From contig OZ242260.1 in assembly GCA_965207065.1 (NCBI GenBank), positions 864,001-928,000 of the forward strand: DNA of 64,000 bases, read 5' to 3'. The notes below the pieces were generated by a model, which ran no database searches, was not told where the DNA came from, and saw only the letters and a list, made by a program, of their open reading frames with translations. This DNA comes from a bacterium (GTDB lineage Bacteria > UBA8248). Positions 35,429 to 63,532 of this stretch are shown here, in pieces (position 1 is the stretch's first letter; each line of letters opens with the position of its first letter). Made by a program: the position numbers and the translations under genes.

Positions 35429-35430
35429 AG

Positions 35431-37026: not shown

Positions 37027-37056
37027 TTCGCAGGTTTCCGGCCGGCCGGGGCAGAC

Positions 37057-37172: not shown

Positions 37173-37228
37173 ACAGGTTCCTCTACCTGGAGAGCCTGGG
37201 TTCCGGGCGCAACTCCCGTGCGATTTTC

Positions 37229-38700: not shown

Positions 38701-38793
38701 TAATGCCGAGAAGTGGATAATGCCGAGTGATCTGCTAAATACGGCTTGTTTACAGGGTTTTTCGGCACATTCACTCGGCATTATATCTGGAGA

Positions 38794-39786
38794 TCACTTG
38801 CCACCGAGAAGTTCCGTCAAGCTGTCCCTGACACCGGGGAAGGTCCCCGGTCTAATGGACGGCGGCGTGCGGGTCTCCAGGATGCGCAGCTTTTCGGCCG
38901 GGCTCGCACGGACGTACATCTCGGTGGTCTTGAGGTGCGCATGACCGAGCCACAGGGAGACCTTTCGGATGTCGCCGGTGGCATGCAGGATCGCCATGGC
39001 CGCGGAATGACGCAGCACATGCGGGGTCACTCTCTTGGTCTTGATCGACGCGACGGTCTTGGCGGCCGTGGTGACATGCTTGTCGAGCAGGTATGCGAAG
39101 CCGTCCGTGCTCATCGCCCGTCCCCGTGCATTGAGGAACATGTATCGGTTGGTGACCGACGGCCTGGCGTCGAGCCACTGATTGAGGACGGTCCTCGTTT
39201 CCTTCCACATGGGCAGTTCCCGTTCGCGTCGTCCCTTGCCCAGGATGCGGATGGTCCCGAGTCGGGGGCCGGACACGCTGTCGAGCGTGAGCGTTGTCAG
39301 TTCCGACACCCTCAACCCGGCGGCATAGCACAGATGCAGCATCGCCCGGTCTCGCAGACCTGCCATCGTTCCAGTATCCGGGGCATCCAGGATCGCTTGC
39401 ATTTCGGTCCGATCGAGCCAGTCGATCAGCGGCTTGTCGGTGGTCTTTTGCGGTATGGCGCGTACCTGCAACGCGAGGTCGAGGCAGCTCGGCACACGGT
39501 ATTCCAGATAACGGAAGAACGACTTGATGGCGGCAAGGCGGACATTGCGTGTGCCCACACTGTTGTTGCGGTCCTTCTCCAGGGACTCGAGGAAGGCCGA
39601 CAGCAACGCCACCGTGAAGTGCTCGATCTTGAGCTTGCAGGGACGGGTCCGGATCCGTTGCGCCGTGTAGGCCACGAGCAGCCGGAAGCACTCGGTGTAG
39701 CCCTGCAAGGTGTGGCGGCTGCATTGCCGTACGTTGGGAAGGTACTCCCGCAGGAAGGCGGAGAGATGGGGGGCAAGATCGGTCAT
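38794..39786 (-). CDS. RIT recombinase C
   Basis: GLRVSE, GKGRRER, PHVLRHS and WLGH...TEMY. Confidence 0.9.
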   Translation of the reverse strand: MTDLAPHLSAFLREYLPNVRQCSRHTLQGYTECFRLLVAYTAQRIRTRPCKLKIEHFTVALLSAFLESLEKDRNNSVGTRNVRLAAIKSFFRYLEYRVPSCLDLALQVRAIPQKTTDKPLIDWLDRTEMQAILDAPDTGTMAGLRDRAMLHLCYAAGLRVSELTTLTLDSVSGPRLGTIRILGKGRRERELPMWKETRTVLNQWLDARPSVTNRYMFLNARGRAMSTDGFAYLLDKHVTTAAKTVASIKTKRVTPHVLRHSAAMAILHATGDIRKVSLWLGHAHLKTTEMYVRASPAEKLRILETRTPPSIRPGTFPGVRDSLTELLGGK

Positions 39787-40712
39787 CGGGCGCCTCCATT
39801 GGTGTGAGCCTGTTCCACCGCCTCGGCGATGCCGTGCAGCAGAACCGGGGTCGCCTCCAGATACCAGTAGGTACTGGTGACATGGACGTGGCCGAGATAG
39901 GTGGCCAGAGCCAGCATGTGCCGGCCCGCTCCGGCGCCGGGAGGCAGCATCTCCAGTGACCGGACGGCGAAGGAGTGTCGCAGCGAGTGCAGGGTCGGCC
40001 CCCGCCCCGCGCCAGGTCTGCGCAGGCCCGCTTGTTCGGCGAGTTTGCGGAAGACACCGCGCACATGGCTTTTGTCTGGACTTCGGCCGGTTGCGATCAC
40101 GAACAGGTGCCGGTCCGGCGTTGTCTCCCTGAGCCGTGCCTCAAGGTAGAGTTCGAGCGCTTCCCAGGTGGTCGGGTGCAGCGCGACCATCCTCGTCTTG
40201 CCGAACTTCGTATCCCGGATGACCAAGCCGTCAGGGGTGATGTCATCCAGCGTCAATGCAAGGGCTTCGCCGATGCGCAGGCCGGTCGCTGCAATGAGAC
40301 CGAACAGGCAGTGCCAGGTCAGCGGGGCGATGGTTTCGGCGGGTCCCACCGACAGGGCCGCGGTCAGCAGTTTGCCGATGTCCGGGACCGATATCAGGTA
40401 CGGCTTCGGCCTCCGCCGCGTCGAACGCCCCAGCGCATCACGAGGCGGCACCTCGTGGCGATCGTCCTCCGCGTGCAGCCAGAGGGCAAGGTCATGGAGC
40501 ACACGGAGCTTTTTGACTTGCACTTGCGCTGATGCCGCCTTCGATGCCGAGGCCCACTCAAGAGCGGTCCCGGAGCAGATGCGGGTCTCGTTGCGAGCCT
40601 CGGCGAACCGCGCAAAGCTGCGCAGCATCCGTTCGTTCTGTGTAAACCGGTAACCGAGCGACCGCTTGATCGCGACAAAGCGCGCGACATGATCGGTGAT
40701 CGTTGTGCTCAT
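39783..40712 (-). CDS. RIT recombinase B
   Basis: TGLRIGE, TKFGKTR, HSLRHSFAV and YLGH...TYWYL; 4-bp gene overlaps. Confidence 0.9.
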   Translation of the reverse strand: MSTTITDHVARFVAIKRSLGYRFTQNERMLRSFARFAEARNETRICSGTALEWASASKAASAQVQVKKLRVLHDLALWLHAEDDRHEVPPRDALGRSTRRRPKPYLISVPDIGKLLTAALSVGPAETIAPLTWHCLFGLIAATGLRIGEALALTLDDITPDGLVIRDTKFGKTRMVALHPTTWEALELYLEARLRETTPDRHLFVIATGRSPDKSHVRGVFRKLAEQAGLRRPGAGRGPTLHSLRHSFAVRSLEMLPPGAGAGRHMLALATYLGHVHVTSTYWYLEATPVLLHGIAEAVEQAHTNGGAR

Positions 40713-42277
40713 TGGTCGCTCCTCCCCATCCAGGGCTGAGCGATCTCCTGCAACATGACCGCATCGGTCTTGGCGTAGATCATCGTCGTGTTCGGTGACC
40801 TGTGGCGCAGTAGCGACTGGATGACATCGAGCGTCGCGCCCGATCTGAGCAACGCCGTCGCCTGGCTATGGCGGAACACATGCGCACCGCGGCCGGCAAA
40901 GGTCTTGACCCCGGCGCGGTCGAGCGCGCGTTTCGCCAGAGAACTGACGATGCTTGAGTCGGCCAATGCTCGCCAGGGCGCTTGGGTGCAGAGGAACACC
41001 TTCTCCTCATCCACCCTCGGCCGCACCGTGGCGATATAGACATGGAGCGCATCGCCGGCATCCTGCGGCAACGGCAGAGCCGCCTCTCGGCGTGACTTCC
41101 CCGAGACACGGATCTCGGCCCGGTCCCAATCGATGTCGCCGAGGCGCAGGGCCACGATGTCTCCTGCCCGCAGGGCAAGCCGTGCCAGAAGCAGCAGGAT
41201 CGCCCGGTCGCGCACGCCCGTCCGGTCATCGCCGCAACTGGCGATGGCGCGTTCGACATCGTCGCACGTGATGTACCGTGGCAAGCTCGACAACTGCCCA
41301 CGAGGCGCTGACGGCACGGCCGCGATCAGCGCGGCCGGGATGCTGCCTTCCCAGGTCAGGAACCGCAGATACATGCGCATCGCGGTTGTCAGAGTCCGGG
41401 CGTAGCTCCGCGACCGCGGGCGCATCTTCTCAAGCAGCACCCGGCGGATCAGGGCCGCGTCACAGGCGCAGGGGTCGTCCCCAAGTTCAGGCATCATCTC
41501 GCCGATCAAACGCACATGTCGCCGTATTGTCCCCGCGCCGATGCCGCGATGGCGTTCAAGCCACACGGCGTACCTCTCAAGGCGAACGGGCGGCGCCTGC
41601 TCGACCGGGACCGGCTCCAGGGGATCGATCCGCCCGATCGAGACGAGGTGCTTCAGGAAGCCGCGCAGTTCGGTTGCGTAAGCTGTGCCGGGTCGCCTCT
41701 TCTCGTGGCCGCAAAACACCCCGGGGATCGAGCAGACGAACGACCGGTTCTCGAAGCGCGCATAGACCTGCGCGCTCAGATCGCACAGGCGGATGCGTGA
41801 GAGATGGAGCCAGACAATGAGACCGGTGCATCCTTTCCGGTACAACCTGAGGGTTGCAGCCGTGTAGCCATTGCCGCGCAAACCGGTGAGGAACGCGCCC
41901 AGCAGCCGCAGATTGTCGTCCAGCTCACCGGGTGTCTCGACATGCCCCGTCTGCTCGAGGAACCGGATGAACGCCATGAGCATGGGTGATGTGCGGCGCT
42001 TGCGCCAACGCCGCAGACGAACCGGCGCGCAAGATGCGCCGCAACGACAATCGTGCTGCAGAAAGCGCTCGATGATCGCGCCGTCCACCGTCTTGAGTTC
42101 GATACGGGTGAGTTCAAGCCAGACCAGGAAGTGAAGGGCGATGCGCCGGTACTTGCCAAACAGTGTCCCGGAAATCTCGGCGCGACTGCGGAGATCGTCA
42201 ACGAAGGCAAGGGTCAAATCGGTGAAGCCCGCCAGAGTGGCACTCGCCGGGGACGGGTTGCTGGATATTGCAGGCAT
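40709..42277 (-). CDS. RIT recombinase A (extended N-terminus)
   Basis: ALRAGD, GKSRRE, HVFRHS and LLRHRSPNTTMIYAK. Confidence 0.9.
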   Translation of the reverse strand: MPAISSNPSPASATLAGFTDLTLAFVDDLRSRAEISGTLFGKYRRIALHFLVWLELTRIELKTVDGAIIERFLQHDCRCGASCAPVRLRRWRKRRTSPMLMAFIRFLEQTGHVETPGELDDNLRLLGAFLTGLRGNGYTAATLRLYRKGCTGLIVWLHLSRIRLCDLSAQVYARFENRSFVCSIPGVFCGHEKRRPGTAYATELRGFLKHLVSIGRIDPLEPVPVEQAPPVRLERYAVWLERHRGIGAGTIRRHVRLIGEMMPELGDDPCACDAALIRRVLLEKMRPRSRSYARTLTTAMRMYLRFLTWEGSIPAALIAAVPSAPRGQLSSLPRYITCDDVERAIASCGDDRTGVRDRAILLLLARLALRAGDIVALRLGDIDWDRAEIRVSGKSRREAALPLPQDAGDALHVYIATVRPRVDEEKVFLCTQAPWRALADSSIVSSLAKRALDRAGVKTFAGRGAHVFRHSQATALLRSGATLDVIQSLLRHRSPNTTMIYAKTDAVMLQEIAQPWMGRSDQ

Positions 42278-42443
42278 TGTCGTTCTCCTTTTTGAGTGAG
42301 AGAACGATAATGCCCGAAGTCACCTGCCGATATAATGCCGAGTGAATGTGCCGAAAAACCCTGTAAACAAGCCGTATTTAGCAGATCACTCGGCATTATC
42401 CACTTCTCGGCATTAATGCCGTTATGCCGAGCTCGGCATAACG

Positions 42444-43813
42444 GCATAGCCCTGCACGCCCACGACGCGATCTTTTTCCGAGAGGATGAGCCTGACGGCG
42501 TCCCTTTGGCCCTACGTAAGCGGTCCCTTGCGCAGATGCGCGCTCACCATCCAGCCCCGCATGGCGGGCGCGCCCCGCCCGCGGCCCGCCTCCACCAGGG
42601 CGATGTTCTCGCGCTCCGCCGCCGCGGCCTTCTCCGTCGTGAGCATGTCCTTCACCCCAGGCAGGTCCGCCGCGTGCAGGACGCCGATCTCCTCCAGCCT
42701 CTTGACCTCGCGTTCGGCTCCCGCCATCGACACCGCGCCGGGCCGCCAGGCGAGCGCGCCCGCGAGGAGAGCCGCGCGGTCGAAGACGGCCTCGCGTTCC
42801 GAGAGGTGCGCCACGGCCCATTCCACGGCCTCCCGGACGGGTTCGACGTCCGCCGCGCTCCGGCCGGCGTCGCGGGACAGGGCCCTCCTCTCCATCGCCT
42901 GCGCCTTGAGGGTCCTGGCGTCGAAGTTCAACTCCTTCGCCTGCTTCTCCCATACGGCCAAGAGCGTCGCCTTGTCGGCTTGGCACTTGGGGTCCCTCGT
43001 CATGAGCGTGACCCGCTGGGCGGCGCGCTGGTTCTCCGACGTCTTGCCCAGCCCGCGTTCTTCCATCGCCTTCTCGATCTCAGCCCGCCGGGTCGAGAAC
43101 GCCTCGATCACCTCGCGCGGGACGCCCGCGATCTCGAAGCGCCCGTCCGCGTGGGTCTTCTCGACACGATAGCCGAAGCTTTCGAGACCACGGGCGAGTT
43201 CGGTCCGGTATATCGCGCCGATCAGCATCTTCTGCGCATAGAGCTTCTCGTTCGACATGGTCCTCCATTTACCGTCGGCGCCACGCACCATGTTGGCGAT
43301 CACGGCGTGCGTGTGGAGCAGGGGGTCCAGGTTGCGCGAGGTGTCGTGGCGGAAGGCCGCGACGAGAATCTTCTGATCGCCGGTCCGTATCATCCGCCCG
43401 ATCCCGGGCTCGCTCATCCTGGTCTCGGCGACGTTCCGCTCGACCCAGTCCAGGGTGCGCGACACGGCCACCTCGTGGGCCCAAATCGCGCGTCCGTCGC
43501 CGCCCAAGTAGGCCAGCAGCGAGACGGACTTGGGCGCCGAGAGGGTGAGATCTCGGCCGGGACGGTGGTGGATGACGCCGTCCTTGCCCCTCTTCCCGAG
43601 CCTGCGCCCCGAACCGTCCGGCACCACGCCCTCGAGCACCGCGCGGAGGGTGTCGGGGTCGACCGGACCCGTGAGTCCCATATCCTCGGCGCCCCTGCCG
43701 CGCCAGGCGCTCGCCTCCCGGTGGTTCGGGTCGTCCTTTCCGTAGTAGTCGTCGCGCTCGAAATAGGAGACACACTGCGCGGGCGCAACGACGGCGCCTA
43801 TGGACGCGACCAT
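42444..43813 (-). pseudogene. N-terminal relaxase part of TrwC/TraI (MOBF) with internal TAG at 42512-42514
   Basis: YFERDDYY, DLTLSAPKSVS, HDTSRNLDPLLHTHAV and FSTRR; frame continues past TAG as GQRDAVRLILSEKDRVVGVQGY. Confidence 0.9.
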
Positions 43814-50038: not shown

Positions 50039-51967
50039 ATTGCGGTAGGGACGCCGGTTACCCGGCGCCCCCCGCTCAGATCCGGACGTGCCCGCTAAGG
50101 CATCCGGCTCCTCCCTCGGGTTTTGCCCCCGCTTAGGCATTGACGGCAAATCGTTGATCCGGCCACGGATGTCGGATTTCCAGCTTGGGCCAGTATCGCG
50201 CAATTAGCCTGTGGATGCTGGCCCAGGCGAACCGGTCCTTTTGCGATCTGCGGCGTATTATGTCGAGCCACACCCGCTTCAGGCGAAAGAGGAAGCGGTA
50301 CAGGTGCCGGTAGCTGGCCGGGACTGCATAGTAATTCAGCCATCCATCGACCACTTTACCCAGCCACTTGGCCGTATCCCTGATGTTGTCGTGCATCCGC
50401 CTGTGCAGCACCTCCTTGATCCGCTTCAGTGTGCGCGTCGTCCGCTTCGCAACTGGCTTGCGCCCCAACTGGAAGTGCCCTCCTCTGGTCTTCGCGCAGT
50501 AGTGCGTGAAGCCCAGAAAGTCGAAGGTCTCCGGTTTGCCTTGACCGCTCTGTTGTCGGTTCTCTTTGGCAAAACGCCCGAACTCGATGAGCCGGGTCTT
50601 GTCGGGATGTAGTTCCAGATCGAAGCGTCCGAACCGCTCCTTCACGGCGTCCAGAAAGCGCTCCGCGTCCCGCTTGTGCTGAAAACCCACCACGAAATCG
50701 TCAGCATATCGTACGATGATCGACTCGCCGTTGGCTTCGCGGCTGCGCCACTTCTTATGGAACCAGAGATCGAGGACATAGTGCAGGTAGACGTTTGCGA
50801 GACTCGGCGAAATCACCGAGCCTTGAGGCGTCCCCCGCAAGTCGTCCCGCCACTCTCCATCTTCCATGACGCCGGCGTTCAACCACTTGATGATCAGCCT
50901 GATAACCCGCTTGTCTCCGATGCGGTGCTCCAGAAACCGGACCAGCCAGTCCCTCGAAACCGTGTCGAAAAATGCGCGGATGTCACAATCGACCACCCAG
51001 TTGATCTTGCGCCGGTCGATGCCGACCGCGAGCGCATCGAGCGCGTCGTGCGCTCCACGCCCGGGCCGGAACCCGTAGCTGAACCCCAGGAACTCCGCCT
51101 CGTAAATCGGCGTCAGGATTATCTCCATCACCGCCTTCTGGACTATCTTGTCCTCGATGGCTGCGACGCCGAGCGGTCGTGTCCCGCCATCCGGCTTCGG
51201 GATATTCACCCGCCGTGACGGCGTCGCCCGGAACGCCCCCGAGTGCACGCGGTCGTGCAGGTCGGCCAGACGGCTTCCCAGCCCTTCCTCGTACATCCGC
51301 CATGTCACGCCGTCCGCGCCTGCCGCCGCGTCCCTCTTCATCTCGAAGAAGGCCCAGCGCAGCGCATCGACCGTGATATGGTGGAGGAGCGTCGTGAGAC
51401 GCATCCCAGGTTCCCTTTGTACAAACTGCCGTATCCGGTCGGCCGCTTGTGACACGCTTTCCCGGTCCTGCGTCCGGTACGTGCTTTGGCCCTCCGGATT
51501 CCCCTCGAGCTCGGCCCTTGGCTCCATCGGCTCCGCCGGGGCTGCCGCCCCTTTGTTCGCCGACTTCACGGCTACTATGGCCGAGTCTGACTTCTCCATG
51601 CCGTTCATCATCGGTTACGGACTCCTCCTTTCGTCAGCGACCCCGCCACGACAGCGGGGTGACATGGAGACCTCCCAGGTCCCGGTGCAGTGCGTACGTA
51701 CGTGTATGGGTTCTTAGACACCGCGGGATTCCGGCCCCCCTCGCCATGTCGGTGGGTCGAATGCTGCCTTCGGCCAGATGGACGGCCTCGGCATCCCGGA
51801 AATGCGCTTTTTCGGTGCTCATTAGCCCTACCCGCACGCGCCCCTGTCAACGCTTGACCCCCGCCCTCGCGAGCGTAGGCCCATGACTCGGGGTGGAAGT
51901 GGTGGCTCACCTTCTCCTTCCCGCCGGACTTTCACCGGCTGCACTGGCACCAGTTAGCCTGGCGCAC
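50039..51967 (-). mobile_element. Group II intron
   Basis: 5' GTGCG at 51967; domain V gagccggatgc...gcacgtccggatctg; domain VI ending ccctaccgcaat at 50039. Confidence 0.92.
50133..51611 (-). CDS. ltrA: Group II intron reverse transcriptase/maturase without endonuclease domain
   Basis: SYGFRPGR, GTPQGSVISP, RYADD and FDFLGF. Confidence 0.93.
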   Translation of the reverse strand: MMNGMEKSDSAIVAVKSANKGAAAPAEPMEPRAELEGNPEGQSTYRTQDRESVSQAADRIRQFVQREPGMRLTTLLHHITVDALRWAFFEMKRDAAAGADGVTWRMYEEGLGSRLADLHDRVHSGAFRATPSRRVNIPKPDGGTRPLGVAAIEDKIVQKAVMEIILTPIYEAEFLGFSYGFRPGRGAHDALDALAVGIDRRKINWVVDCDIRAFFDTVSRDWLVRFLEHRIGDKRVIRLIIKWLNAGVMEDGEWRDDLRGTPQGSVISPSLANVYLHYVLDLWFHKKWRSREANGESIIVRYADDFVVGFQHKRDAERFLDAVKERFGRFDLELHPDKTRLIEFGRFAKENRQQSGQGKPETFDFLGFTHYCAKTRGGHFQLGRKPVAKRTTRTLKRIKEVLHRRMHDNIRDTAKWLGKVVDGWLNYYAVPASYRHLYRFLFRLKRVWLDIIRRRSQKDRFAWASIHRLIARYWPKLEIRHPWPDQRFAVNA

Positions 51968-52558
51968 CCATTTGTTGCGCTCATCCATGTTCACCGCGCA
52001 GGCCATAATCCGCGACATGGAGAAGGCCGGACGTGAAGAAGAAATCGCGCAAATCAGCCGAAATATCTCCGAAGTCGCGCCGGAATTGCCGGGAAAATCG
52101 GCAAATAACCTGCGAGATCGAGTAGATTCGGGGAGCGACAACCCATAAGCTGATCAGCCTTAGCTCGTCTGAGAAATAACTTTCACAGTCGGAAATTCAC
52201 GCCACATAGACATCCGACTCGCCGTATCCGCGAGTTAATCGTTGCGTACATATTCATACTGCCGCTCTGTCCGGGACACGATGCGACAACCGGAACCGGT
52301 GAATCAGTCCAAACTGCATTCAAACAAAATGACGAAGCTGTGATTTTCAGGCAAAAACCGCAACCTCTCTTCGTCGTGCGCCTGCCTCCGAACTGTTCGT
52401 TGGAAGTCATTTTTAACGAAAAGCGCGGGGGAAATCTCGACGACATTCTTCTACTTCACGTCGCGCACGATGATGGTGCAGGTATACTTGGCAGGAAAAT
52501 CACATGATGCAAAAGCGGGAGGAAGAATACCTGACAGTCAAACTCCTGACCAAGCGTT

Positions 52559-53326
52559 TCACCAAGCAGGCGGTTTCGAGATCGTCGTACCTAGAAGGTG
52601 TTCGGGAAACTGCGCGGCTTTCAGCATTGCCGGACGAATATGCCTCACGCGATTCGCGACATCCCGCAACTTCGGAGCGATTGACCAGCGCCCCGGGCAT
52701 ACGATGAACACGGGCTTTTTTCGCTCCACGGACACCATGCGAATGGGTGTCACCAAATCGGTATCATTCGAAATCACAACGGCCACGTCGAACAATCCCT
52801 TCCAGGCATCGTTCAATAGATGAGCTGCGAGATTCACATCCGAGCCTTTCTCTTCCATCGTATGGACTTCGGCGACAACCGCATCGGGCAGTGGCCTAGC
52901 GGCCTTTCGCCGTTTTCTTTTGCCCGAGTCATCAATCGAATACCCACTCACCGGCAAAGTCTTTCCTAGATCTGCCACCGGGTGATTGCCCGCCGGCAGC
53001 GTTACCGGTCTCGGCGTATCGATTCTTTTATCGGCAACGGGCAGATTTGTGAGCGGGCGCCAGTTGATCTTGGCGAGAAATCTCCCGAGATGCACCTTTA
53101 CTTCGGGCAAAGTGTTAAGCGCGCTCAGATATACCTGCTGACGGGCAGGCGCTCCCGGATTCAATGCACCGGATACCCGGGCGGTGAAATAGTTGAGCCT
53201 ATCTATGGTATGACCCGCCGGAAGCAGGCGGTAGGAGAGTTTGACCAAGTTGAGCCACTTGAAGGGCGTACCCTTGAGCGCTCCGTAATACAGGTTGAAA
53301 CCATCGACGTAGACTCTGGTTCGCAT
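52559..53326 (-). CDS. NYN/LabA-DUF88 PIN-like nuclease
   Basis: VYVDGFNLYYG, EEKGSDVNLA and ISNDTDL. Confidence 0.88.
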   Translation of the reverse strand: MRTRVYVDGFNLYYGALKGTPFKWLNLVKLSYRLLPAGHTIDRLNYFTARVSGALNPGAPARQQVYLSALNTLPEVKVHLGRFLAKINWRPLTNLPVADKRIDTPRPVTLPAGNHPVADLGKTLPVSGYSIDDSGKRKRRKAARPLPDAVVAEVHTMEEKGSDVNLAAHLLNDAWKGLFDVAVVISNDTDLVTPIRMVSVERKKPVFIVCPGRWSIAPKLRDVANRVRHIRPAMLKAAQFPEHLLGTTISKPPAW

Positions 53327-53659
53327 GATTCCCACAAAAAGAGCAAAGGCCGCTCCGAAGAGTGGCCCTTGAGCCGACAGCACGCTGTCGGCGGGTATAT
53401 TTCCCTCAATGCTACCACCGGACCGACACTCTTGCAAGCGACAAAATTCTGAAACCAGTTCTCCCTTCACATCGCAAGAAGGCAACAACTAGCAGCGCCT
53501 TACCGGTGAGAAACTATAGCCTCTCCTCCAAACTCCCGCACTCCTTTTTCAGGAGTTTGGTGTCGATGGGGGTCGGGAAAGAGAGGAAGATAATGACTTT
53601 GCACGGAGGTGAGAATCAAATACTTTGTTCAGTAAGTTCATCTAATCAGCAATCCGCCA

Positions 53660-53687
53660 GGTTCATCCCCGCGTGGGCGGGGAACAC
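53660..53687 (-). CRISPR. Isolated type I-E repeat (28 of 29 nt; terminal-type, ends CCT not CCG)
   Basis: ggttcatccccgcgtgggcggggaacac, identical to the array repeat except the last base. Confidence 0.9.
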
Positions 53688-53790
53688 TCTTTCAGGCGCC
53701 GTCCCCGCTCTCGGAGGTCTCGTCGAAAGCCGCCGAGACGTTGAGGCCGAGTACGACGCAACGGTCCTGGAGGATCGTATCCGCTCAGCG

Positions 53791-54640
53791 CTACGACCGG
53801 GTCCGCAACGCACGGAATGAAGACGCAGCGTCGTGCGACAGGTTCATCGCCAACAACTCTGACATCGCGTCGTCCTCGGAAATCTCCGCGCTCCAACCGT
53901 AAGCACCCGCCACAGCGTCGGCGAGCCATTGCGGACGGGCGTTGTAGAGATTGGTCAACATGCGGCCCCTGAGTTCCTTTGCCGCCGCCTCGTCCCGAAC
54001 GACCGGGCGCTTCGGATAGCCCGGCACCGGTTCCTCCGTCCACTCCACCCATTCGGGCGGGTTGAGCCAGCGGTCGCGGAGGTCGATCAGGTGCCGGGCC
54101 GCGTCCGCGATGGCGACCGCGCGCGGGTCATCCGCATAGTCGGGCGCGAGAACGCCGGGCGAGAGACCGTCCGGGAAGGGGAAGGTTTCGAAGGTGGTGG
54201 TCGGCGTGTAGCGGGGATCGTTGCCTTTGCCGAGCCATGTGCCGAGCCGCAGCGACCACGCCTCGTGGAACGAGCTATGCAGGATGCCGAAGGTCACATC
54301 GTCGTTGCGCGCGATGACGATGTGCTGGTGGTCGGGGCAGACCCCTGCATCGAGCCAGACGAACAGCCGGTGCTTGGAAACCGTTGGCGTCGCGATGAAA
54401 CGTCGCAAACCGTCGAGCGCTCGCCACATTTCCGGTCTCGGGCGTTCATGTCTCTAACAGAACTTTCTGACTGCCGAAGCCCGGTTCCGCTGTCGGCCCG
54501 GCCAGACGCATTCCTTGACGTGCCCGAAGGGTGCTTCATAGAGCGCGGCTTCAGCCTCCGACATGTCCCATCCGAAATCGACGATCCACTTGTCCGCCGG
54601 ACGGCGGGTCATGTCCATGCCGTTGACACAGGGCCTTCTA
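53791..54640 (-). pseudogene. C-terminal (specificity) fragment of an MmeI-like type IIG/IIL restriction-methyltransferase
   Basis: NGMDMTRRPADKWIVDFG, TPTVSKHRLF, RYTPTTTFETFPFP and LTNLYNARPQWL; in-frame TAG at 54454-54456. Confidence 0.8.
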
Positions 54641-54679
54641 ACGTAGCTCTGCTCCACTCCGCGACCCTGCTCGTACATC

Positions 54680-56536
54680 CTAGCGCTGAACGCCGCTCCC
54701 ATACACCAGCGAGATCCCCTTCCGCGCCAATTCCGCCCCCTTCACATAGCTCTGCTTCACCCCACGACCGGTCTGGTACATCAACGCCAAGTTACTATGG
54801 GCGTTCGAGTCTCCTTGGTCCGCCGCCTTCTGGTAATACTCCACCGCCTTCATGTCGCTCTGTTCCACCCCATGACCCATCTGGTACATCCAACCCAGGT
54901 TGCGCTGGGCGTCCGCATTCCCCTGCCCGGTCGCCTTCCGGTACCATTCCACCGCCTTCACATAGCTCTGCTTCACCCCACGTCCGTCTCTGTACATCGT
55001 CCCCAAGTTGTTCTGAGCGTCCGCATTCCCTTGCTGGGCCGCCTTCCGGTACCACTCCGCCGCCATCACATCGCTCTGCTTCACCCCATGTTCGTACATC
55101 GTCCACAAGTCTCGTTCCGCCGCCTTCTTCACATGTCCGTGGTCCTCCCTCCGCCAGTCGCCGTCCGCCGCCCTCCGGTAATACTCCACCGCCTTCATGT
55201 CGCTCTGTTCCACCCCATGACCCATCTCGTACATCCAACCCAGGTTGCGCTGGGCGTTCTCATACCCCTGCCCGGTCGCCTTCCGGTACCATTCCACCGC
55301 CTTCACATAGCTCTGCTTCACCCCACGACCGTCTCTGTACATGGTCCCCAAGTTGTTCTGGGCGTCCGTATTCCCCTGCTGGGCCGCCTTCCGGTACCAC
55401 TCCACCGCCTTCACATAGCTCTGCTTCACCCCACGACCGTCTCTGTACATGGTCCCCAAGTTGTTCTGGGCGTCCGTATTCCCCTGCTGGGCCGCCTTCC
55501 GGTACCACTCCACCGCCTTCACATAGCTCTGCTCCACCCCACGACCGTTCGCGTACATCACACCCAAGTAGTTCTGGGCGGTCGTATTCCCCCGCTCCGC
55601 CGCCCACCGGTGCCGCTCCGCCGCCTTCCGGAACCGCTCCACCGCCTTCACATCGCTCTGCTTCACCCCATGTCCGTCTCTGTACATCGTCCCCAAGTTG
55701 TTCTGGGCGTCCGCATTCCCCTGCTCGGCCGCCTTCCGGAACCACTCCACCGCCTTCACGTCGCTCTGCTCCACCCCACGTCCGTCTCTGTACATGGTCC
55801 CCAAGTTGTTCTGGGCGTCCGTATTCCCCTGCTGGGCCGCCTTCCGGTACCATTCCACCGCCTTCACGTCGCTCTGCTCCACCCCACGACCGTTCGCGTG
55901 CTTCATAGCAAAGTTCAACTGGGCGGTCTTATCCCCCTGCTGGGCCGCCTTCCGGTACCATTCCACCGCCTTCACGTCGCTCTGCTCCACCCCACGACCG
56001 TTCGCGTACATCACACCCAGGTTGTTCTGGGCGAGCGCATGTCCTGCATTCGCGGCCTTCAGATACATGCCTGCAGCTTGTCTGCTATCCCGTGAAATTG
56101 CCAATCCATCTTCTAGCGCGGACGCGAGCAGGAATAACGCTTCCGCATTGCCGCCACGAGCGAGGTCTTGGACGGTACCTAGGACACGTCGCGCAAGCGT
56201 TTCCGCCAGGTTTCTGTCCTGGGGAAACTCAAGCCGACCCCCAACAATCTTTGCATAATTTTCCAACGGGTTTCCGCCCTCGTCCTCAACCCGACCCCTA
56301 AAAAGACTTCGCGCCACCCACATCACACCGAGGGGATGTCCCGCATCCGCCGCCATCTTGAATAGCGCCCCGGCTCGTACAAAATCATATCGATCACTCC
56401 GCGAGTACAAGGACACCGCCTCCGACACCATCTTCTCCGCCTCACGGAGAGCATCGCCATACGCCAGTTGGGGAACCACCACTCCTGTCAACAACACGAG
56501 CCAAGCGAAAAGCCTCAACTTCCGTGTGATTTTCAT
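54680..56536 (-). CDS. Secreted Sel1-like repeat protein
   Basis: Signal peptide; more than ten 36-aa AQNNLG.MY.DGRGV.QS..KAVEWYRKAA repeats (108-bp DNA repeats). Confidence 0.92.
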   Translation of the reverse strand: MKITRKLRLFAWLVLLTGVVVPQLAYGDALREAEKMVSEAVSLYSRSDRYDFVRAGALFKMAADAGHPLGVMWVARSLFRGRVEDEGGNPLENYAKIVGGRLEFPQDRNLAETLARRVLGTVQDLARGGNAEALFLLASALEDGLAISRDSRQAAGMYLKAANAGHALAQNNLGVMYANGRGVEQSDVKAVEWYRKAAQQGDKTAQLNFAMKHANGRGVEQSDVKAVEWYRKAAQQGNTDAQNNLGTMYRDGRGVEQSDVKAVEWFRKAAEQGNADAQNNLGTMYRDGHGVKQSDVKAVERFRKAAERHRWAAERGNTTAQNYLGVMYANGRGVEQSYVKAVEWYRKAAQQGNTDAQNNLGTMYRDGRGVKQSYVKAVEWYRKAAQQGNTDAQNNLGTMYRDGRGVKQSYVKAVEWYRKATGQGYENAQRNLGWMYEMGHGVEQSDMKAVEYYRRAADGDWRREDHGHVKKAAERDLWTMYEHGVKQSDVMAAEWYRKAAQQGNADAQNNLGTMYRDGRGVKQSYVKAVEWYRKATGQGNADAQRNLGWMYQMGHGVEQSDMKAVEYYQKAADQGDSNAHSNLALMYQTGRGVKQSYVKGAELARKGISLVYGSGVQR

Positions 56537-56624
56537 CTCTCTTGTCCTCCGTCGTCCGATCTTGACTCGAAACTCTACACTTCTTCCGTTGCCAATTCAA
56601 CTTTCCCGCGCCTGAAGGACGCCC

Positions 56625-56874
56625 TCAGCTTGTCGGCTGATCGCCGTTCGACAGGTGCTTGTCTCGCAAACGGAGATACGCCCGGCGGAGTCCCCTCTTG
56701 AATACGCGGTCTCCAACGAGCCGCCCCAGTTCCCGGTAGCTTTCCCACTGTGCCTCGTCGAAAAACTGATCCGCGGTGGTTTGTTGGGGAAAATCAGAAT
56801 TCGCCGCGTGGTAGTTGAGAATGTCGACGGGTTCGTCGCACAAGATTGTCGGTTTGACGTACACCAGGAGCGTG
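56625..56874 (-). pseudogene. C-terminal fragment of a patatin/cPLA2-like gene, cut by IS21
   Basis: LVYVKP...FPQQTTADQFFDEAQWESYRELG. Confidence 0.6.
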
Positions 56875-57702
56875 TGTTGCGGGCAACTGTAAATCTCCCA
56901 TTAATGGCAACCGAAAACTGCACACATTGATTGCCGGTGTAAGTGCCCGGGTCCACGCTGTTGGCAAGACCAACAGGAACGGAGCGGAGCGCAGATGCAC
57001 GGATGGGAGACGAGGATGTTGCTCAGGCACTACCTAGAGCAAGGTGTAACGAAGACGGAGCTGTCGCGGCGGTTCGGGGTGAGCCGCCGGACGATCCACG
57101 AGTGGATCGAAACGGGGCAGTTGGACCGGGACCTTGAGGGAGGCGGGACGCGGTACAGCCCGCGGCCAGCGGTTGAGCACAAGCTGGACGGGTACAAGGG
57201 GGATCATCGATACGCGACTGGAGGAGTTCCCCCGGTTGTCGGCGAAGCGGCTGTACGACGAGGTCCGGGCGGCAGGCTACACGGGCGGGTACGTCCGTGT
57301 GAGGGACTACGTTCGGGCGGTGCGGCCGCGGGAGCCTGAGGAGGCGGTGGTGCGGTTCGAGACGCCAGCGGGGCGGCAGGGGCAGGTGGACTTTGCGACG
57401 TTCACGCTTCCCTGGGGGCGGCGGCACGCGCTGGTGGCGGTTCTGAGCCACTCGCGACTGTTGTGGCTGCGGTTCTACCGCCGGCAGACGATGGCGGTGC
57501 TGATCGAAGGCCTGGAGAGCGCCTTCGGGTGGTTCGGCGGGGTACCGCGGGAGCTCTTGTTCGATCAGATGCGCTCGGTGGTGCTGTCGGACGGCCGCGT
57601 GGGCGGGGGCCAACTGGTACTGAACGCGGACTTCCTGCGGTTCGCCGCGCACTGGGGGTTCCGGACTCGGGCATGCCGGCCCTACCGAGCACAGACCAAG
57701 GG
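56875..57702 (+). mobile_element. istA: Truncated IS21-family element (left end + frameshifted istA)
   Basis: TG-starting end with repeated GGCAACYG boxes; RFETPAGRQGQVDF, LLFDQM and CRPYRAQTKG, then cut; frameshift near 57200. Confidence 0.85.
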
Positions 57703-59154
57703 CTAGGCTTCATACTGCACCTCATCGGGACGTTGCGTGACAAGCACGCGCGAAGGAAGTCGTTTCGTAAACTTCCGGCCCTGTTGCTTGACGGGCGGCT
57801 GGTCGCCGGGTGGCTCGTAGAGCCACTGGTCTCTGTCGTTGTAGCGGTGTGCTCGAAGCAGGCCATGGTGGCGCCATTGCTTGACGGTGTGGGTCGAGAC
57901 GTCGAGCATGGCAGCAGCTTCGCATACGGTCAACAGGCCGCGGGCGCGCAGGCGCTCGTAGCGGGAGGACAAGCGGTACTCCTTGCGTATGGCCTGTACG
58001 CGCTGCGGCCGGAAGACGACGCCGTGGCCGGTGCGCAGTCCGCTCTCGTTCAGCAAGGCGGCGACCTCCGCGTCGGTGTGGCTGTCGAGCAGGTTGTCGA
58101 TCTGGGCGACGACGCACTCGGGGGTCCGGTACCGTTGCCCTGCGGGAAGTTCGGGAGCCAACCGCAGCGTCCGCGTGGCCCCGCCGCGCAGGCGCACGCC
58201 AAGAGCGATCTCGGCGCCTCGCATGATGGTGACGTCGTCGATCAGCAGCCTGGCCATGCGCTTGCGCTCGCGGTCTGGCGTCGCCGGATCGTTCCACAGA
58301 CGCGGGAAGTCGGTGGCCAGGGACAGGACGCGTTGACGCCGGGCGTCGTCGAGCCGTCCCGGGTCCTCGACACGGCGCTGCTCGAGTTCGCGGCGAGCGT
58401 CGTCCAGAGCGCGCAACCTGGCGTTCCACTCGGCCTCCAGGACATCGGCTACGAGCCGCTTGTCGGGATGAGCCTGCATGAAGCGCTGCCGCGCCAGTTC
58501 CGCCTCCTCACGGGCCCTCTCGACGGTCTGGGCGCGCCAGGCATCGACCTCGTCGACGCGCGCGGCCAGTTCGTCCTGGACCTTGAGCGCCACGGTCAGT
58601 GTGACGGGCGTCATCAGTTCCACCAGTAATGCGCCCACGGCGCGGTCGATGCCGGCGCCGGGTATGGACTGGCACTTGGCGTCCGCGCTCTGGATGCCGT
58701 CGCGCTGGCAGACGTAGTCTGGAACCTGCCGACCCTGGCGGGTGTGATAGCGGACCGTCATGCCCTGCCCGCACACGCTGCACAGGGCAAGACCCTGTAG
58801 CAGCGCCGGCCCCTCGCGGGCTGGACCGCGGCGCCGGTCCGCGCCGTGGGCCAGCGCGTTGTCGCGTAGATGCCGTTGATTGGCCTCGAAGTGATCCCAT
58901 GCGATGTAGCCGGGATGGGCGTCCCGCAAAAGGACCGTCCACTCGCCGATGGGCACGCGCCGCCACTCGACGACGACGCCCGCGCGACGCCGCTGTCGGC
59001 TGCGCCCGAACGCGTAGGCGCCGGCATAGCGCGGATTGTGCAGCACCTGCAGGACGCGCGAGTGATCCAGCGGCTGCCAGTGCAGTTCGCCCTTGCGCGC
59101 CCCGGCGCGGATGCGGCGAGGGAAGAGCAGGCCCGCGTCGCGGAAGTGCCGCAC
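57703..59154 (-). pseudogene. Large serine recombinase, recombinase/zinc-ribbon/C-terminal part only
   Basis: LHNPRYAG, HPGYI, LLQGLALCSVCG, YVCQ and EVQYEA; N-terminal catalytic domain absent, cut at the CRISPR repeat. Confidence 0.85.
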
Positions 59155-62100
59155 CGGTTCATCCCCGCGTGGGCGGGGAACACGTCTCCATTGAGACCAT
59201 GCGGGTCGGATGCCCCGGTTCATCCCCGCGTGGGCGGGGAACACTGTTTCTGCTTTTCATCTGGTTGATGGCATCCCGGTTCATCCCCGCGTGGGCGGGG
59301 AACACTAGAGGGAAGGGTATAGGTCTACCTAATATACCGGTTCATCCCCGCGTGGGCGGGGAACACGGCACGCGACATGACGAAGATGCAATAGCCCACG
59401 GTTCATCCCCGCGTGGGCGGGGAACACAGGTCGTATTCACCCTCACTCCAGCCTGAGAACGGTTCATCCCCGCGTGGGCGGGGAACACGTGTAGAAGCTC
59501 GTGCATTTTGGAGTCGATTTCGGTTCATCCCCGCGTGGGCGGGGAACACAAGACCGGGCCGCTCCCTATGGGAAAGGCGTCCGGTTCATCCCCGCGTGGG
59601 CGGGGAACACTTTCGACTCTCGTGAGTACGTCCTCGAGCAGCCGGTTCATCCCCGCGTGGGCGGGGAACACGGCTGATTATCCAACGACATATTCACCAC
59701 ATCCGGTTCATCCCCGCGTGGGCGGGGAACACTTCCTCCCCGTCTCGCACGGGGGCATTCCATCCGGTTCATCCCCGCGTGGGCGGGGAACACTTCCTCG
59801 CGTGTGATTGGCATGAGGATTTCTCCGGTTCATCCCCGCGTGGGCGGGGAACACATGCTCTCACGCCACCTAGTGATGTCTTCATCCGGTTCATCCCCGC
59901 GTGGGCGGGGAACACCCACACTCTGTATAAAAATCAGAATCAGGACTCGGTTCATCCCCGCGTGGGCGGGGAACACTGGCCCCGGAACTGGCAAGCCGGT
60001 TCCAGCGCCGGTTCATCCCCGCGTGGGCGGGGAACACCGGCCCGAACTCGGGCCGACCCTACCCGTACCCGGTTCATCCCCGCGTGGGCGGGGAACACTG
60101 GGCGCAGCAGTCAGCCTACGGAATCTACCCCGGTTCATCCCCGCGTGGGCGGGGAACACTCGTCGGAAGACGCCAGCGCGTGGGTGTAATCCGGTTCATC
60201 CCCGCGTGGGCGGGGAACACAAGTTGTATTCCGTGATGATGTGATTGAGGTTCGGTTCATCCCCGCGTGGGCGGGGAACACCTCTCTTGCTCCGAAGAAA
60301 TCGCCGATTATGCCGGTTCATCCCCGCGTGGGCGGGGAACACCATTACGATTCAGTGGATAGGTATCGTCAACTCGGTTCATCCCCGCGTGGGCGGGGAA
60401 CACGTCCAGGCCGGGTATGGAGCCTGGGCTCCAGTCGGTTCATCCCCGCGTGGGCGGGGAACACTCGTCGGAAGACGCCAGCGCGTGGGTGTAATCCGGT
60501 TCATCCCCGCGTGGGCGGGGAACACACGCCCAAGGCTGCCGCGCCGAAGATGTACACCGGTTCATCCCCGCGTGGGCGGGGAACACTACATGGCCCGCAA
60601 GCGCGATGAATGGGCTGCCGGTTCATCCCCGCGTGGGCGGGGAACACACGTACGCCGTAAGAGCCGGTACGTTTCAGGGCGGTTCATCCCCGCGTGGGCG
60701 GGGAACACGCCGGTTCGCTGTTCACGATTGCCGGTTGAACCGGTTCATCCCCGCGTGGGCGGGGAACACGCGATCACGAAGGATTTACTTATGAGCATTA
60801 CCGGTTCATCCCCGCGTGGGCGGGGAACACTAATCAAACGCTCTTCCACTACATTCATATTCCGGTTCATCCCCGCGTGGGCGGGGAACACTTCTTGTCC
60901 AACAAGCTGGCCTCGTTCATCGTCGGTTCATCCCCGCGTGGGCGGGGAACACTGCTGAACAGATGGAGAGCATTAAGACAGGAACGGTTCATCCCCGCGT
61001 GGGCGGGGAACACAAATCTGCGGCAATCACGTAAAAGACGTTTTTCGGTTCATCCCCGCGTGGGCGGGGAACACTGGCAGGCACCAGAGCATGGAGTATT
61101 TGCATACGGTTCATCCCCGCGTGGGCGGGGAACACGGAGATATCGGCAAAGGTGTAATCGGCGATTTCGGTTCATCCCCGCGTGGGCGGGGAACACATCT
61201 ATCCATTCGTAGGAGAGGTAGCTCACGACGGTTCATCCCCGCGTGGGCGGGGAACACGCGTAGATTGTACCATTTCATGTGTCATTCTCCGGTTCATCCC
61301 CGCGTGGGCGGGGAACACCAGCGTCAGCGTTTTTTCGCCTCTCTGGCTGCCGGTTCATCCCCGCGTGGGCGGGGAACACGCGAGTCCGCTGTGTGATGCT
61401 CGCTATGACGGCGGTTCATCCCCGCGTGGGCGGGGAACACGTCTCCCCTATGCGCAAGCGCATCAGAGATGACGGTTCATCCCCGCGTGGGCGGGGAACA
61501 CAGCTCAAGTGCTTCTTCCAACATGGCCCGCCTCGGTTCATCCCCGCGTGGGCGGGGAACACATTCGCAAGGAACCTACCCCTTACCCCTCCCCCGGTTC
61601 ATCCCCGCGTGGGCGGGGAACACTATAAAAATCAAAACATCAACTCTGAAGGAACCGGTTCATCCCCGCGTGGGCGGGGAACACTAGTGTAGAATACGTT
61701 CCTACTTGCCATATTCCGGTTCATCCCCGCGTGGGCGGGGAACACAACAACACTACTGCAAGAACTTTCCCACCAATCGGTTCATCCCCGCGTGGGCGGG
61801 GAACACGCGTATATTGCCTCCCCAAATGGGTGCGGAACCGGTTCATCCCCGCGTGGGCGGGGAACACATATGGGGCCTCTTTGTATTCTTTTGGAACGTC
61901 GGTTCATCCCCGCGTGGGCGGGGAACACAGCACAGCAGGAGGTCGAATATAGTGCGTTACCGGTTCATCCCCGCGTGGGCGGGGAACACTCCCATTGCAT
62001 TTGTGCATTTTATTATTATGTCGGTTCATCCCCGCGTGGGCGGGGAACACTTGGCAAGCCCAGGTCGCGGAAGTATGTGTCCCGGTTCATCCCCGCGTGG

Positions 62101-63407
62101 GCGGGGAACACTGCACCTCTTCTTCGCTTAATTTCTCGTCTAACGGTTCATCCCCGCGTGGGCGGGGAACACCTGTTCCAGTGTTTCCTTTATCAACCAT
62201 AATCCGGTTCATCCCCGCGTGGGCGGGGAACACCTCTCCTCCTCTCCTAATCCCTACCCATTCCTCGGTTCATCCCCGCGTGGGCGGGGAACACATCCTC
62301 GATTTTGTTACGCCAGACTTTAATGTCGGTTCATCCCCGCGTGGGCGGGGAACACATCACGTATAGCCAAGGTACGTTTGAATGGAACCGGTTCATCCCC
62401 GCGTGGGCGGGGAACACGGTAATTACCGGTTTGATACGTTGGGACCATGTATTGCATCGGTTCATCCCCGCGTGGGCGGGGAACACTTCGTTTCCTCGAG
62501 GCTGTGCTTGTTCGGTTCATCCCCGCGTGGGCGGGGAACACCTGTTCCCTTAATGCTCCGAAGGATATGTATCCGGTTCATCCCCGCGTGGGCGGGGAAC
62601 ACTCACCACAGCGTCATGGCGTTTGAATCCCGAAGCTTCGGTTCATCCCCGCGTGGGCGGGGAACACTCTCCTGGAATATTGCAGTTTTAAGACCTCCGG
62701 TTCATCCCCGCGTGGGCGGGGAACACATGCCGGCGAGCAAGCTCGCCGGCATCGAGGCCGGTTCATCCCCGCGTGGGCGGGGAACACCCTGTACGGGGCA
62801 TGAGTGGACATTCTGATTTCGGTTCATCCCCGCGTGGGCGGGGAACACGCTTCTCACAACACCCAGAACCCGCCTTGTCTCGGTTCATCCCCGCGTGGGC
62901 GGGGAACACGGTGGTCGCCTTCGGCTCCCTTGGGTGGTCGCCGGTTCATCCCCGCGTGGGCGGGGAACACGCTCCCTTGGGTGGTCGCGCCTGCCGGCGC
63001 TCCGGTTCATCCCCGCGTGGGCGGGGAACACATTGCGCTGAATGAGTACAGTGTTGTTCATTCGGTTCATCCCCGCGTGGGCGGGGAACACTTTCATCAC
63101 ATATCCTCCTGCGGTTCATCCCCGCGTGGGCCACTCTTTCTGGCCGGCATCGCCGGCCCCTTTCGTCGGTTCATCCCCGCGTGGGCGGGGAACACCAAGG
63201 AGCCCGGCTGCTTCGCCCCGAAGGGTGCGGTTCATCCCCGCGTGGGCGGGGAACACGCATATACAACGTATCCGGCCAACGTACGGTTCATCCCCGCGTG
63301 GGCGGGGCTTTGTCGGTTCATCCCCGCGTGGGCGGGGAACACCTTGCCTGTTTCATAGATGGTTGACGTACTAGCAACCGGTTCATCCCCGCGTGGGCGG
63401 GGAACAC
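59155..63407 (-). CRISPR. Type I-E CRISPR array, 71 repeats (two internally damaged), GTGTTCCCCGCCCACGCGGGGATGAACCG
   Basis: 29-bp repeat with 61-bp period; counted by hand. Confidence 0.98.
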
Positions 63408-63532
63408 TCTTCTTGGAACTCATTGATTCAAAATAGATATTCAGGAGGACTCGGAGTTACCGGCTTTTTCGGGGCTTTGCTTAAAGTTTCAATCATGGCG
63501 TAATACGGCTCCTTAATACATGTTCAGCCGTT
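63408..63532 (-). promoter_or_regulatory. CRISPR leader with IHF-like site (AATCAATGAGTTC, 63416-63428)
   Basis: AT-rich segment between cas2 and first repeat; one mismatch to WATCAANNNNTTR. Confidence 0.75.

Follow-up and report, generated by a model that had tools for sequence, protein, structure and literature searches.

Foreign DNA in CRISPR arrays has so far been known in the form of intact elements, namely insertion sequences (IS), Tn7-like transposons and a prophage, which use their own enzymes. Casposons insert kilobase-scale DNA by means of a Cas1-family enzyme, with duplication of the target; both the Cas1 and a polymerase are encoded by the casposon itself, which also has terminal inverted repeats. 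The prophage PhiAP1.1, located in the repeats of Streptococcus pyogenes, interrupts the array with kilobases of DNA between two repeats; it is described as an intact prophage, capable of excision, that uses its integrase and an attachment site lying in the repeat (bioRxiv 10.1101/2020.10.09.333658). The Tn7-like transposons that target cyanobacterial arrays occupy a position fixed relative to the repeat, and the cases reported there are transposons complete with their ends and tns genes, inserted in spacers at a constant site (PMC11837452). Recombination between a spacer and its target is established in phages and in staphylococcal arrays, according to a review (PMC8616872, citing Varble et al. 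2019 and Watson et al. 2018): the short identity of spacer and target is the recombination substrate and links foreign DNA to the array at the spacer, and the staphylococcal work, as summarized there, was experimental and concerned phage DNA and transducing particles spreading CRISPR loci. In the present study, we analyzed a 64,000-nucleotide stretch (hereafter the window; positions 864,001 to 928,000 of the forward strand of contig OZ242260.1, assembly GCA_965207065.1) from a bacterium of the lineage UBA8248, in which 5467 bp of mobile-element DNA separates a type I-E CRISPR array from a lone copy of its repeat.

The explanation that we favor, tentatively and with somewhat less than even confidence, is that these 5467 bp, a leftover of DNA rich in mobile elements, entered the trailer-proximal part of the array through recombination with mobile DNA, that the array originally ended in the lone repeat, and that the intervening DNA is not a spacer made by adaptation. 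The positions given below are those of the window, and the genome to which it belongs is referred to as G000.

The array and its terminal repeat

The genes cas2-cas1-cas6e-cas5-cas7-cse2-cse1-cas3 are located directly upstream of the array, in an intact operon that extends beyond the window. All eight reading frames are open, and seven of the eight exceed the NCBIfam cut-offs for type I-E; cas3 falls below the full-length model (366.5 vs 569), yet passes both Cas3 domain models. The locus displays the features of type I-E: eight cas genes adjoining the array, 29-nt repeats ending in ..CCG, and spacers that are mostly 32 nt long (59 of the 68 in the array). The repeat on the plus strand is the reverse complement of the classic type I-E repeat, and thus the array is transcribed on the minus strand. 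Read from right to left, the order is cas2 and cas1 (from ~63.5 kb), the leader, 69 repeats (63379 down to 59155), the 5467 bp (53688–59154), the lone repeat, and the trailer:

63408–63520, minus strand: CRISPR leader, whose end ..TTTTGAATCAATGAGTTCCAAGAAGA is kept in the leaders of three related arrays
59155–63407, minus strand: type I-E CRISPR array, 69 full repeats of 29 nt, partly palindromic, ending in ..CCG
59155–59183, minus strand: last regular repeat, ending in CCG, joined straight to a recombinase fragment
53659–53687, minus strand: lone terminal repeat, 28/28 core bases identical, last base T and not G (CCT vs CCG)
53445–53658, minus strand: array trailer, 214 bp, 47% G+C, AT-richer, found together with the lone repeat in the sequencing run X4

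The 28-nt core of the repeat was searched for in the whole 4.48-Mb genome, allowing up to three mismatches and using the reversed pattern as a control. The search found 70 forward copies and one reverse copy, compared to 0 and 0 for the control. The 70 forward copies are the 69 array repeats (59155–63407) and the lone copy, all in the same orientation. On the plus strand, the base before the core is C in 69 of the 69 array repeats (CCG on the transcribed strand), unlike the A found in the lone copy. These results agree with the initial annotation of the stretch, which had described a lone repeat in array orientation ending in CCT and a last array repeat ending in CCG.

Public runs from eight studies match parts of the stretch, with no RNA run among the 24 listed; four of the runs, including X1, X2, and X4, were compared, all in the form of short-read contigs. 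Record 17 of X4 (1149 nt; from another host label and another study) matches positions 52800–53688, which include the trailer, with 6 differences in 889 nt. After the trailer, this contig carries the lone repeat, then a spacer of 1+23+8 = 32 nt, and then another repeat. Because a sister strain shows the series of trailer, lone repeat, 32-nt spacer, and repeat, we conclude that the lone repeat is a genuine array terminus; a sister genome with a normal 32-bp last spacer was what had been proposed as a check. Swarts et al. (2012) reported that the last repeat base in type I-E is copied from the protospacer-adjacent motif (PAM) of the following spacer. The founder terminal repeat alone escapes such a PAM-derived last base, and one T against 69 G fits a true terminal repeat, as the initial annotation had supposed.

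The X4 contig also bears on whether the lone repeat could be a solitary repeat on a mobile element, acting as an RNA anti-CRISPR or a recombination handle, and not a part of the host array. Host-like solitary repeats occur on phages and plasmids (PMC10651486; PMC8616872), and the flanks of the present copy are mobile DNA. In X4, however, the same repeat and trailer end a normal series of spacers and repeats, and the difference in the last base is as expected of a founder terminal repeat, which makes a solitary repeat scarcely credible here. A further objection had been that the flank of the lone repeat resembles the end of a leader, as would befit a separate array. The local alignment of this flank to the real leader was no better than alignments of shuffled sequences (p=0.47), and we rejected a leader upstream of the lone repeat on this result.

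The opposite, leader-proximal end of the array is irregular. Among the 18 newest units (62327–63407), nine have spacers of 26–75 nt or damaged repeats, compared to none of the 50 older units, the spacers of which are all 32 nt long. The off-length spacers among the newest units measure 33, 40, 26, 36, 30, 31, and 36 nt, and two damaged repeats were found:

63112–63134: damaged repeat with a 6-nt internal deletion, followed by a 20-nt spacer
63284–63307: damaged repeat, cut after 24 nt

The irregularity of the newest units suggests that spacer integration has recently become less faithful. A gene for a DnaQ-like DEDD 3'-5' exonuclease is located divergently beside cas3, outside the window (L059:8795–9412; G000:C1:936094–936711), and in type I-E such exonucleases act in the trimming of prespacers. 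The same spacer occurs at two places in identical form (60160–60191 and 60465–60496), and the source sequences of two neighboring spacers (62910–62941 and 62971–63002) overlap by 18 nt. The overlap is consistent with repeated sampling of one target.

The interrupting DNA and its junctions

The 5467-bp insert is a contiguous mosaic of at least five decayed pieces, with nested insertions and internal deletions, and is not one captured gene. From the array side to the trailer side, it consists of the following parts:

57692–59154, minus strand: 3' 1.46 kb of a serine-recombinase element; the C-terminal 483 residues of the recombinase are left, with the stop at 57703
56882–57706, plus strand: 5' portion of an element of the IS21 family; its istA carries one frameshift and ends in ..RPYRAQTKG
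56625–56876, minus strand: C-terminal gene fragment without a Pfam or NCBIfam match, cut by the end of the IS21 element
54680–56536, minus strand: gene for a Sel1-repeat protein, 618 residues, 13 Sel1 repeats, hydrophobic N-terminus
53791–54637, minus strand: remnant of an MmeI-type restriction-modification gene, last ~270 codons (~800 bp), relatives being ~770 residues long
53688–53833, no strand: 146 bp without a match, between the MmeI remnant and the lone repeat

The pieces are nested in that the IS21 element lies in the gene fragment without a family match, the serine-recombinase element lies in that IS21 element, and the Sel1 gene is fused to the MmeI remnant. The initial annotation had placed kilobase-scale foreign DNA, including a near-complete Sel1 gene, in the oldest spacer slot. 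The location is indeed where the oldest spacer or spacers are expected, but the content is a patchwork and not a captured gene. The Sel1 gene likewise retains 618 residues and 13 repeats, but its 3' end is damaged, since Sel1-type sequence continues out of frame to ~54641.

In the recombinase fragment that adjoins the array, the Pfam Recombinase match covers profile positions 39–102 only, and the catalytic Resolvase domain is absent; intact homologs carry ~215 more N-terminal residues. Intact relatives were found at 31 loci in sponge-associated and other genomes. The intact element is 3.4 kb long and has genes for a DUF5372 protein, an HTH_32 protein, and a 698-residue recombinase with Resolvase, Recombinase, zinc-ribbon, and HTH domains. 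It is a multi-copy element, the copies inside one genome being 99.5–99.97% identical. The metagenomes contain near-identical copies that are intact, and a unitig of X1 corresponding to 57694–59156 ends two bases into the repeat.

On its other side, the recombinase element abuts istA (NCBIfam, 174 bits, profile positions 48–228 of 294). At the loci L023, L028, L039, and L026/L027, the recombinase element abuts an istA gene cut at the same residue, with IstA proteins 38–77% identical to that of the window, and at L023 the remaining istA and istB are found on the far side of the element. Because the same istA cut point is seen at all of these loci, the adjacency of recombinase and istA reflects the normal target of the element and is not a product of a CRISPR junction. 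The 3.4-kb element is present in several bacterial phyla of sponge-associated genomes (window 56882–59154; L020–L028, L039, and L047) and has repeatedly been inserted at the same istA codon, after ..RPYRAxTKG, a mobile element targeting another mobile element.

Of the remaining pieces, the gene fragment at 56625–56876 is present as the same DNA in runs X1 and X4, which diverge from the window past 56875. The MmeI homology runs from 54637 to ~53834, and in comparison with relatives and metagenomes the remnant is frameshifted, has a 7-residue internal deletion, and ends in an altered C-terminus. This minus-strand remnant is the real feature on the left side; the plus-strand gene end (..SGAVPALGG..PQRTE*) that had been read there found no support. 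The 146 bp at 53688–53833 showed no leader similarity and no match in relatives, plasmids, or metagenome loci, and no degenerate repeat above background was detected in 53688–53900.

A source for the insert was sought in several sets of sequences. The search of its own genome yielded only distant paralogs of the recombinase, the 60 relatives at most 70% identity (MmeI and recombinase parts), and plasmids 63–68% identity among the 15 matches listed. A search of 51 genomes of the phylum with the region 53600–53850 yielded matches to the repeat only. In metagenome contigs, the exact pattern of the trailer gave 0 matches; the MmeI fragment gave a best amino-acid identity of 81%, with no contig reaching 53688–53833 and none carrying the repeat.

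The insert does not resemble a transposed or site-specifically integrated element. No terminal inverted repeats joining its ends were found among the 25 longest of 51 inverted pairs, in accordance with the earlier description of the 53688–59154 gap, and the IS21 istA and the recombinase are both truncated. As for site-specific integration, the recombinase has no Resolvase domain, and the usual target of its element is the IS21 istA, not the CRISPR repeat.

At the right junction, the break in the recombinase gene coincides with the repeat-spacer border to within 2 nt, the dinucleotide CG being common to the end of the repeat and the intact gene. The earlier observation that the insert starts in the middle of a gene at the repeat edge holds, with ~215 N-terminal residues gone. 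The junction was compared with 19 of the 31 recombinase loci, those whose match starts at residue 1. At the position of the cut, marked here by a hyphen, the intact genes read ..AC(G/C)-GTGCG.. in 19 of the 19 loci, and the window reads ..AACCG-GTGCG... The triplet before the cut is ACG in 12 of the 19 intact genes and ACC in 7 of them, including the closest homolog (L029, 86%), instead of the AAG-like PAM that the initial annotation had proposed to look for. The would-be last repeat base is G in the 12 homologs as well as in the near-identical copies of X2 and X4. These two copies (X2 record 16 and X4 record 23) match the window up to 59156 and contain 260–280 further letters unlike it.

The missing 1.9 kb of the recombinase element is found nowhere else in the genome, where its left 2 kb match one distant paralog only. 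A reciprocal product, that is, the N-terminus of the recombinase elsewhere in the genome, was sought without success beyond this one paralog. The absence of the 1.9 kb therefore indicates loss or partial capture and not reciprocal exchange. An inversion having the array and the oppositely oriented lone repeat at 1.49 Mb (described below) as its endpoints was rejected on paper, as undoing it leaves the junction of repeat and gene in place. At the left junction the lone repeat is complete, and the break may lie at 53688 or anywhere in 53688–53833. The 32-nt sequences adjoining the two repeats show no relation to one another.

Spacer-protospacer recombination is expected to yield target sequence that starts at the repeat-spacer boundary and continues past the length of the spacer, and this is what the right junction shows, within 2 nt. 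A spacer made by Cas1-Cas2 is expected to have the ruler length of ~32–33 nt, which 5467 bp does not, and to be flanked by full-length repeat copies on both sides, which the insert is.

The contigs also allow an assembly artefact, in which unrelated DNA was misjoined at the repeats, to be judged. Repeats are the classic places of misjoining, none of the contig pieces listed spans the whole stretch, and 56876–56904 and the right junction across the repeat are among the parts without cover by these pieces, which did not enter into the evidence. On the other hand, the genome was assembled as one 4.48-Mb contig, and record 2 of X1 covers the whole core of the lone repeat and 381 nt of the insert with 0 differences. 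In addition, record 10 of X2 consists of the trailer, A, the repeat, and TC, a 31-mer diagnostic of the left junction; since X4 has TG after the terminal repeat, this 31-mer is specific to the terminal repeat followed by the first two bases of the insert. An artefact is highly improbable in view of these records.

Related arrays and the origin of the insert

Type I-E arrays with leaders of the same family as that of the G000 array are present in G044 and G042, which represent two genera of the same class. In both arrays, the final repeat is a perfect CCG copy that runs straight into the same TrwC relaxase gene, which is cut after ~106 codons in G044 and ~19 codons in G042 and is adjoined by a coupling-protein gene; the two arrays have 0 of 26 spacers in common. 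No second repeat was found in the complete G044 genome (27 of the 27 repeat matches are inside the array) or on the contig of the G042 array, the only two other copies in G042 being on contig C7. Relaxases amount to 6–9 copies per genome in G000, G042, and G044. Because the relaxase and coupling-protein genes lie directly beside the arrays (L054, G044:C1:210500–216000; L055, G042:C5:1082500–1089000), the CRISPR-Cas locus of G044 and G042 may be carried on a conjugative element.

Three of the four array ends examined lie within 2 nt of the distal edge of the repeat. With breakpoints distributed uniformly over a 61-nt unit, the chance of at least three in four is ~0.002, a value from a small sample of genomes chosen for sharing the repeat. 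No leftover partial spacer was found at the three edge-fused ends. These figures speak against an origin by illegitimate events, in which mobile elements would have been inserted at an old array end and trimmed by microhomology or slippage deletions, the right junction falling on the repeat edge by chance or being favored by the repeat hairpin. An absence of inverted repeats or target duplications of an inserting element points in the same direction. Such an origin is compatible with the two-base microhomology (CG) at the right junction, with the other deletion junctions inside the insert (MmeI-Sel1 at ~54640 and the 7-residue deletion), with an array of G010 that ends inside a repeat, and with a neighborhood made up of mobile-element debris, but we consider it distinctly unlikely. 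As explanations, chance deletion and misassembly are less likely.

Single repeats are found elsewhere in these genomes. A second lone repeat in G000 (C1:1486764–1486792; L060:8765–8793) is on the opposite strand at a distance of 560 kb from the array, and no array adjoins it; it differs by one mismatch and likewise ends in CCT. A 54-residue open frame reaches within 1–2 nt of its leader-side edge; we dropped a transposase label for this frame, whose best Pfam match has E=0.087 and which has no homolog in the 60 relatives. Two large minus-strand frames are located on its trailer side, which by eye resemble an AbiE-type toxin-antitoxin pair. G042 possesses a locus consisting of cas1, a leader, a single repeat, and a trailer, and a 225-bp inverted copy of the repeat and trailer is found 12 kb away, the similarity beginning 2 nt before the repeat. 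In this region (L061, G042:C7:1010500–1028500), the lone repeats at 2609–2833 and 14903–15127, each with 195 bp of identical trailer, flank 12 kb whose frames we take, by eye, to include cas1-like and type I restriction genes, an IS6-type transposase-like gene, and a cut integrase gene.

The second lone repeat and the single-repeat locus of G042 lend weight to a serious rival, although we rate it as unlikely. The lone repeat of the window would be the remnant of a second, downstream array, and the 5.5 kb would be inter-array DNA. Two separate deletions would have occurred, one from the first array into the recombinase gene and the other leaving only the final repeat of the second array, without its leader. 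Two arrays are common at type I-E loci, and the CCT repeat without an array at 560 kb implies that arrays here do collapse to the terminal repeat, a process also found in the literature (review PMC8047081). Moreover, an array end in a perfect repeat without a downstream partner does exist, in G044, and the X4 contig, with its repeat, spacer, and lone repeat, fits either array. Against these points, no leader-like sequence precedes the lone repeat (p=0.47, as above), though the deletion could have taken the leader; one extra array and two deletions are required; the first array would be left without a terminal repeat of its own; and the core of the lone repeat is identical to that of the array at 28 of 28 positions, in contrast to the one mismatch in the distant lone repeat.

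Another possibility is that Cas1-Cas2 joined both ends of a long DNA to the borders of one repeat, duplicating it and producing a 5.5-kb spacer. The target would have been the terminal repeat, or else the sole repeat left after the collapse of an array, to which 68 units were added later; according to the review PMC8047081, there are documented cases of adaptation into a lone repeat and of collapse followed by repopulation. The geometry, a repeat ending in G, the insert, and a repeat ending in T, is as expected, and the intact source gene has G at the would-be last repeat base. The cas1 and cas2 frames are open, with scores far above the family cut-offs, and integration has been faulty in the newest part of the array (9 of 18 units, compared to 0 of 50 older ones). 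However, the substrate of Cas1-Cas2 measures ~33 bp, and we know of no kilobase-scale Cas1-Cas2 integration in vivo, literature searches having given no precedent. The insert is old and decayed, with internal deletions, so that its present ends need not be original, and its left break may lie some way from the repeat. The bases preceding the cut, ACG or ACC and not AAG, may count against this possibility as well. The same fusion of repeat and gene is seen in G042 and G044, with no second repeat in G044 and none on the contig of the G042 array. Since the G044 fusion is not followed by a second downstream repeat, full-site integration by Cas1-Cas2 is not the general cause of such junctions, and we regard it as improbable for the present one. 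Of the two origins offered in the initial annotation, long integration by Cas1-Cas2 and spacer-protospacer recombination, we thus favor the latter.

Recombination of the array with mobile DNA might have proceeded as follows. The array would once have held spacers against this mobile DNA, and the 32-nt identity between spacer and protospacer would have been used for homologous recombination, possibly stimulated by attack of Cascade-Cas3. The product would be the preceding repeat fused straight to the target, followed by whatever came after the protospacer in the target. Such recombination would remove the PAM and destroy the spacer as a working unit, and the product would escape self-targeting, because the PAM is lost and the spacer no longer lies between two repeats. 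In favor of this account, no spacer of the present array has a match in the rest of its own genome. A second event of this kind, or a plain deletion, may have created the left junction, with loss of the oldest ancestral spacers. The putative targets, a multi-copy recombinase element in G000 and conjugative relaxases in the relatives, fit the spacer targets expected of arrays in these genomes.

Several points weigh against this recombination and keep our preference for it tentative. In a search for protospacers that would reveal the PAM, 561 spacers from seven arrays were compared with the loci examined and the genome, and spacers were also compared with GenBank phages and plasmids; only chance-level or repeat-driven matches were obtained. 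No protospacer was found for the 65 spacers of the window or the 496 spacers of relatives, and 0 of the 496 spacers of relatives match the insert. The bases before the cut are ACG or ACC and not the AAG usual for type I-E, and those in G042, judged from the G044 sequence as a proxy, are CCT. For RecA-type recombination, 32 bp of identity is close to the minimum. The left break may lie away from the repeat edge, because the MmeI homology ends 146 bp before the lone repeat. The difference between the 32-nt ends of the insert excludes one single crossover with a circular element, and hence the insert needs at least two recombination events or a double crossover. The linkage across the repeats rests on the assembly, the contigs compared being too short to span them. 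Finally, the G010 array is a counter-example at the level of the repeat border, as it ends in a repeat cut after 18 nt.

The parallels raise a broader idea, which we consider possible but on balance doubtful: arrays in these symbionts would repeatedly become fused to mobile-element genes exactly at the repeat border, the fusions being footprints of a border-specific joining process. The recombinase of G000, the relaxase of G042 and G044, and the foreign DNA abutting lone repeats would be examples, and the process could be spacer-guided recombination triggered by self-targeting or Cas1-Cas2 strand transfer onto long DNA. If true, border-specific joining would delete or capture kilobases and reshape both the array and the mobile element.

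The whole neighborhood of the array consists of mobile-element debris. Downstream of the trailer is a mobile gene cassette:

52559–53488, minus strand: NYN-domain gene cassette, found at a different locus in a genus relative

In that relative (G021; L010), the cassette (window 52446–53444) is located between a transporter-binding-protein gene and a cupin gene, which are adjacent to each other at 230.0–231.9 kb in G000. The stretch from the remnants of a conjugative element (34117–43813) to the NYN cassette contains a gene for a group II intron reverse transcriptase/maturase (50133–51611; RVT_1, E=2.9e-36). The TrwC relaxase gene among the remnants is split into an N-terminal part (42512–43813) and a helicase part (37229–38677) by three consecutive tyrosine-recombinase genes (38794–42277), and a further integrase gene is found at 34117–36600.

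Comparison with known systems

What the locus means depends on how it arose. If the fusions at the repeat border here and in the two related genomes arose by spacer-target recombination, they would be natural evidence that the memory of immunity can serve as a recombination handle, one that can weld to the chromosome the plasmids or elements under attack and that trims away old spacers, at the same time bringing self-targeting to an end. If Cas1-Cas2 made the fusions, this integrase would have a transposase-like side activity in vivo. If neither is true, the locus would be no more than the usual decay of an array end, in a genome rich in mobile DNA.

Unlike casposons, the insert contains no Cas1, terminal inverted repeats, or polymerase. 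With the PhiAP1.1 prophage it shares the placement of kilobases of DNA between two repeats of an array, but it differs from that prophage in that its recombinase is halved at the repeat, only fragments are present, and the logic of an attachment site is lacking. Compared to the Tn7-like transposons in cyanobacterial arrays, it has no ends, inverted repeats, or tns genes, and its cargo is truncated. Solitary repeat units and RNA anti-CRISPRs share with the lone repeat the appearance of a single host-like repeat amid mobile DNA (PMC10651486; PMC8616872); here, unlike there, the repeat and trailer form the array end in a sister strain and stand in line with the host array. Array collapse and repopulation (Deecker and Ensminger 2020, as cited in PMC8047081) explains lone terminal repeats such as those at 1.49 Mb in G000 and at the G042 locus, and also why sister strains may share no old spacers. 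As presented in that review, however, collapse by repeat-repeat recombination leaves a leader, a repeat, and a trailer, and places no foreign genes at the repeat edge. In contrast to the staphylococcal case, the present locus is a fixed chromosomal footprint in a type I-E system, involves plasmid- or IS-type DNA, and has lost the downstream part of the array. What is new here in comparison with the intact elements described so far is that the foreign DNA in the array is fragmentary and that its break lies on the repeat border.

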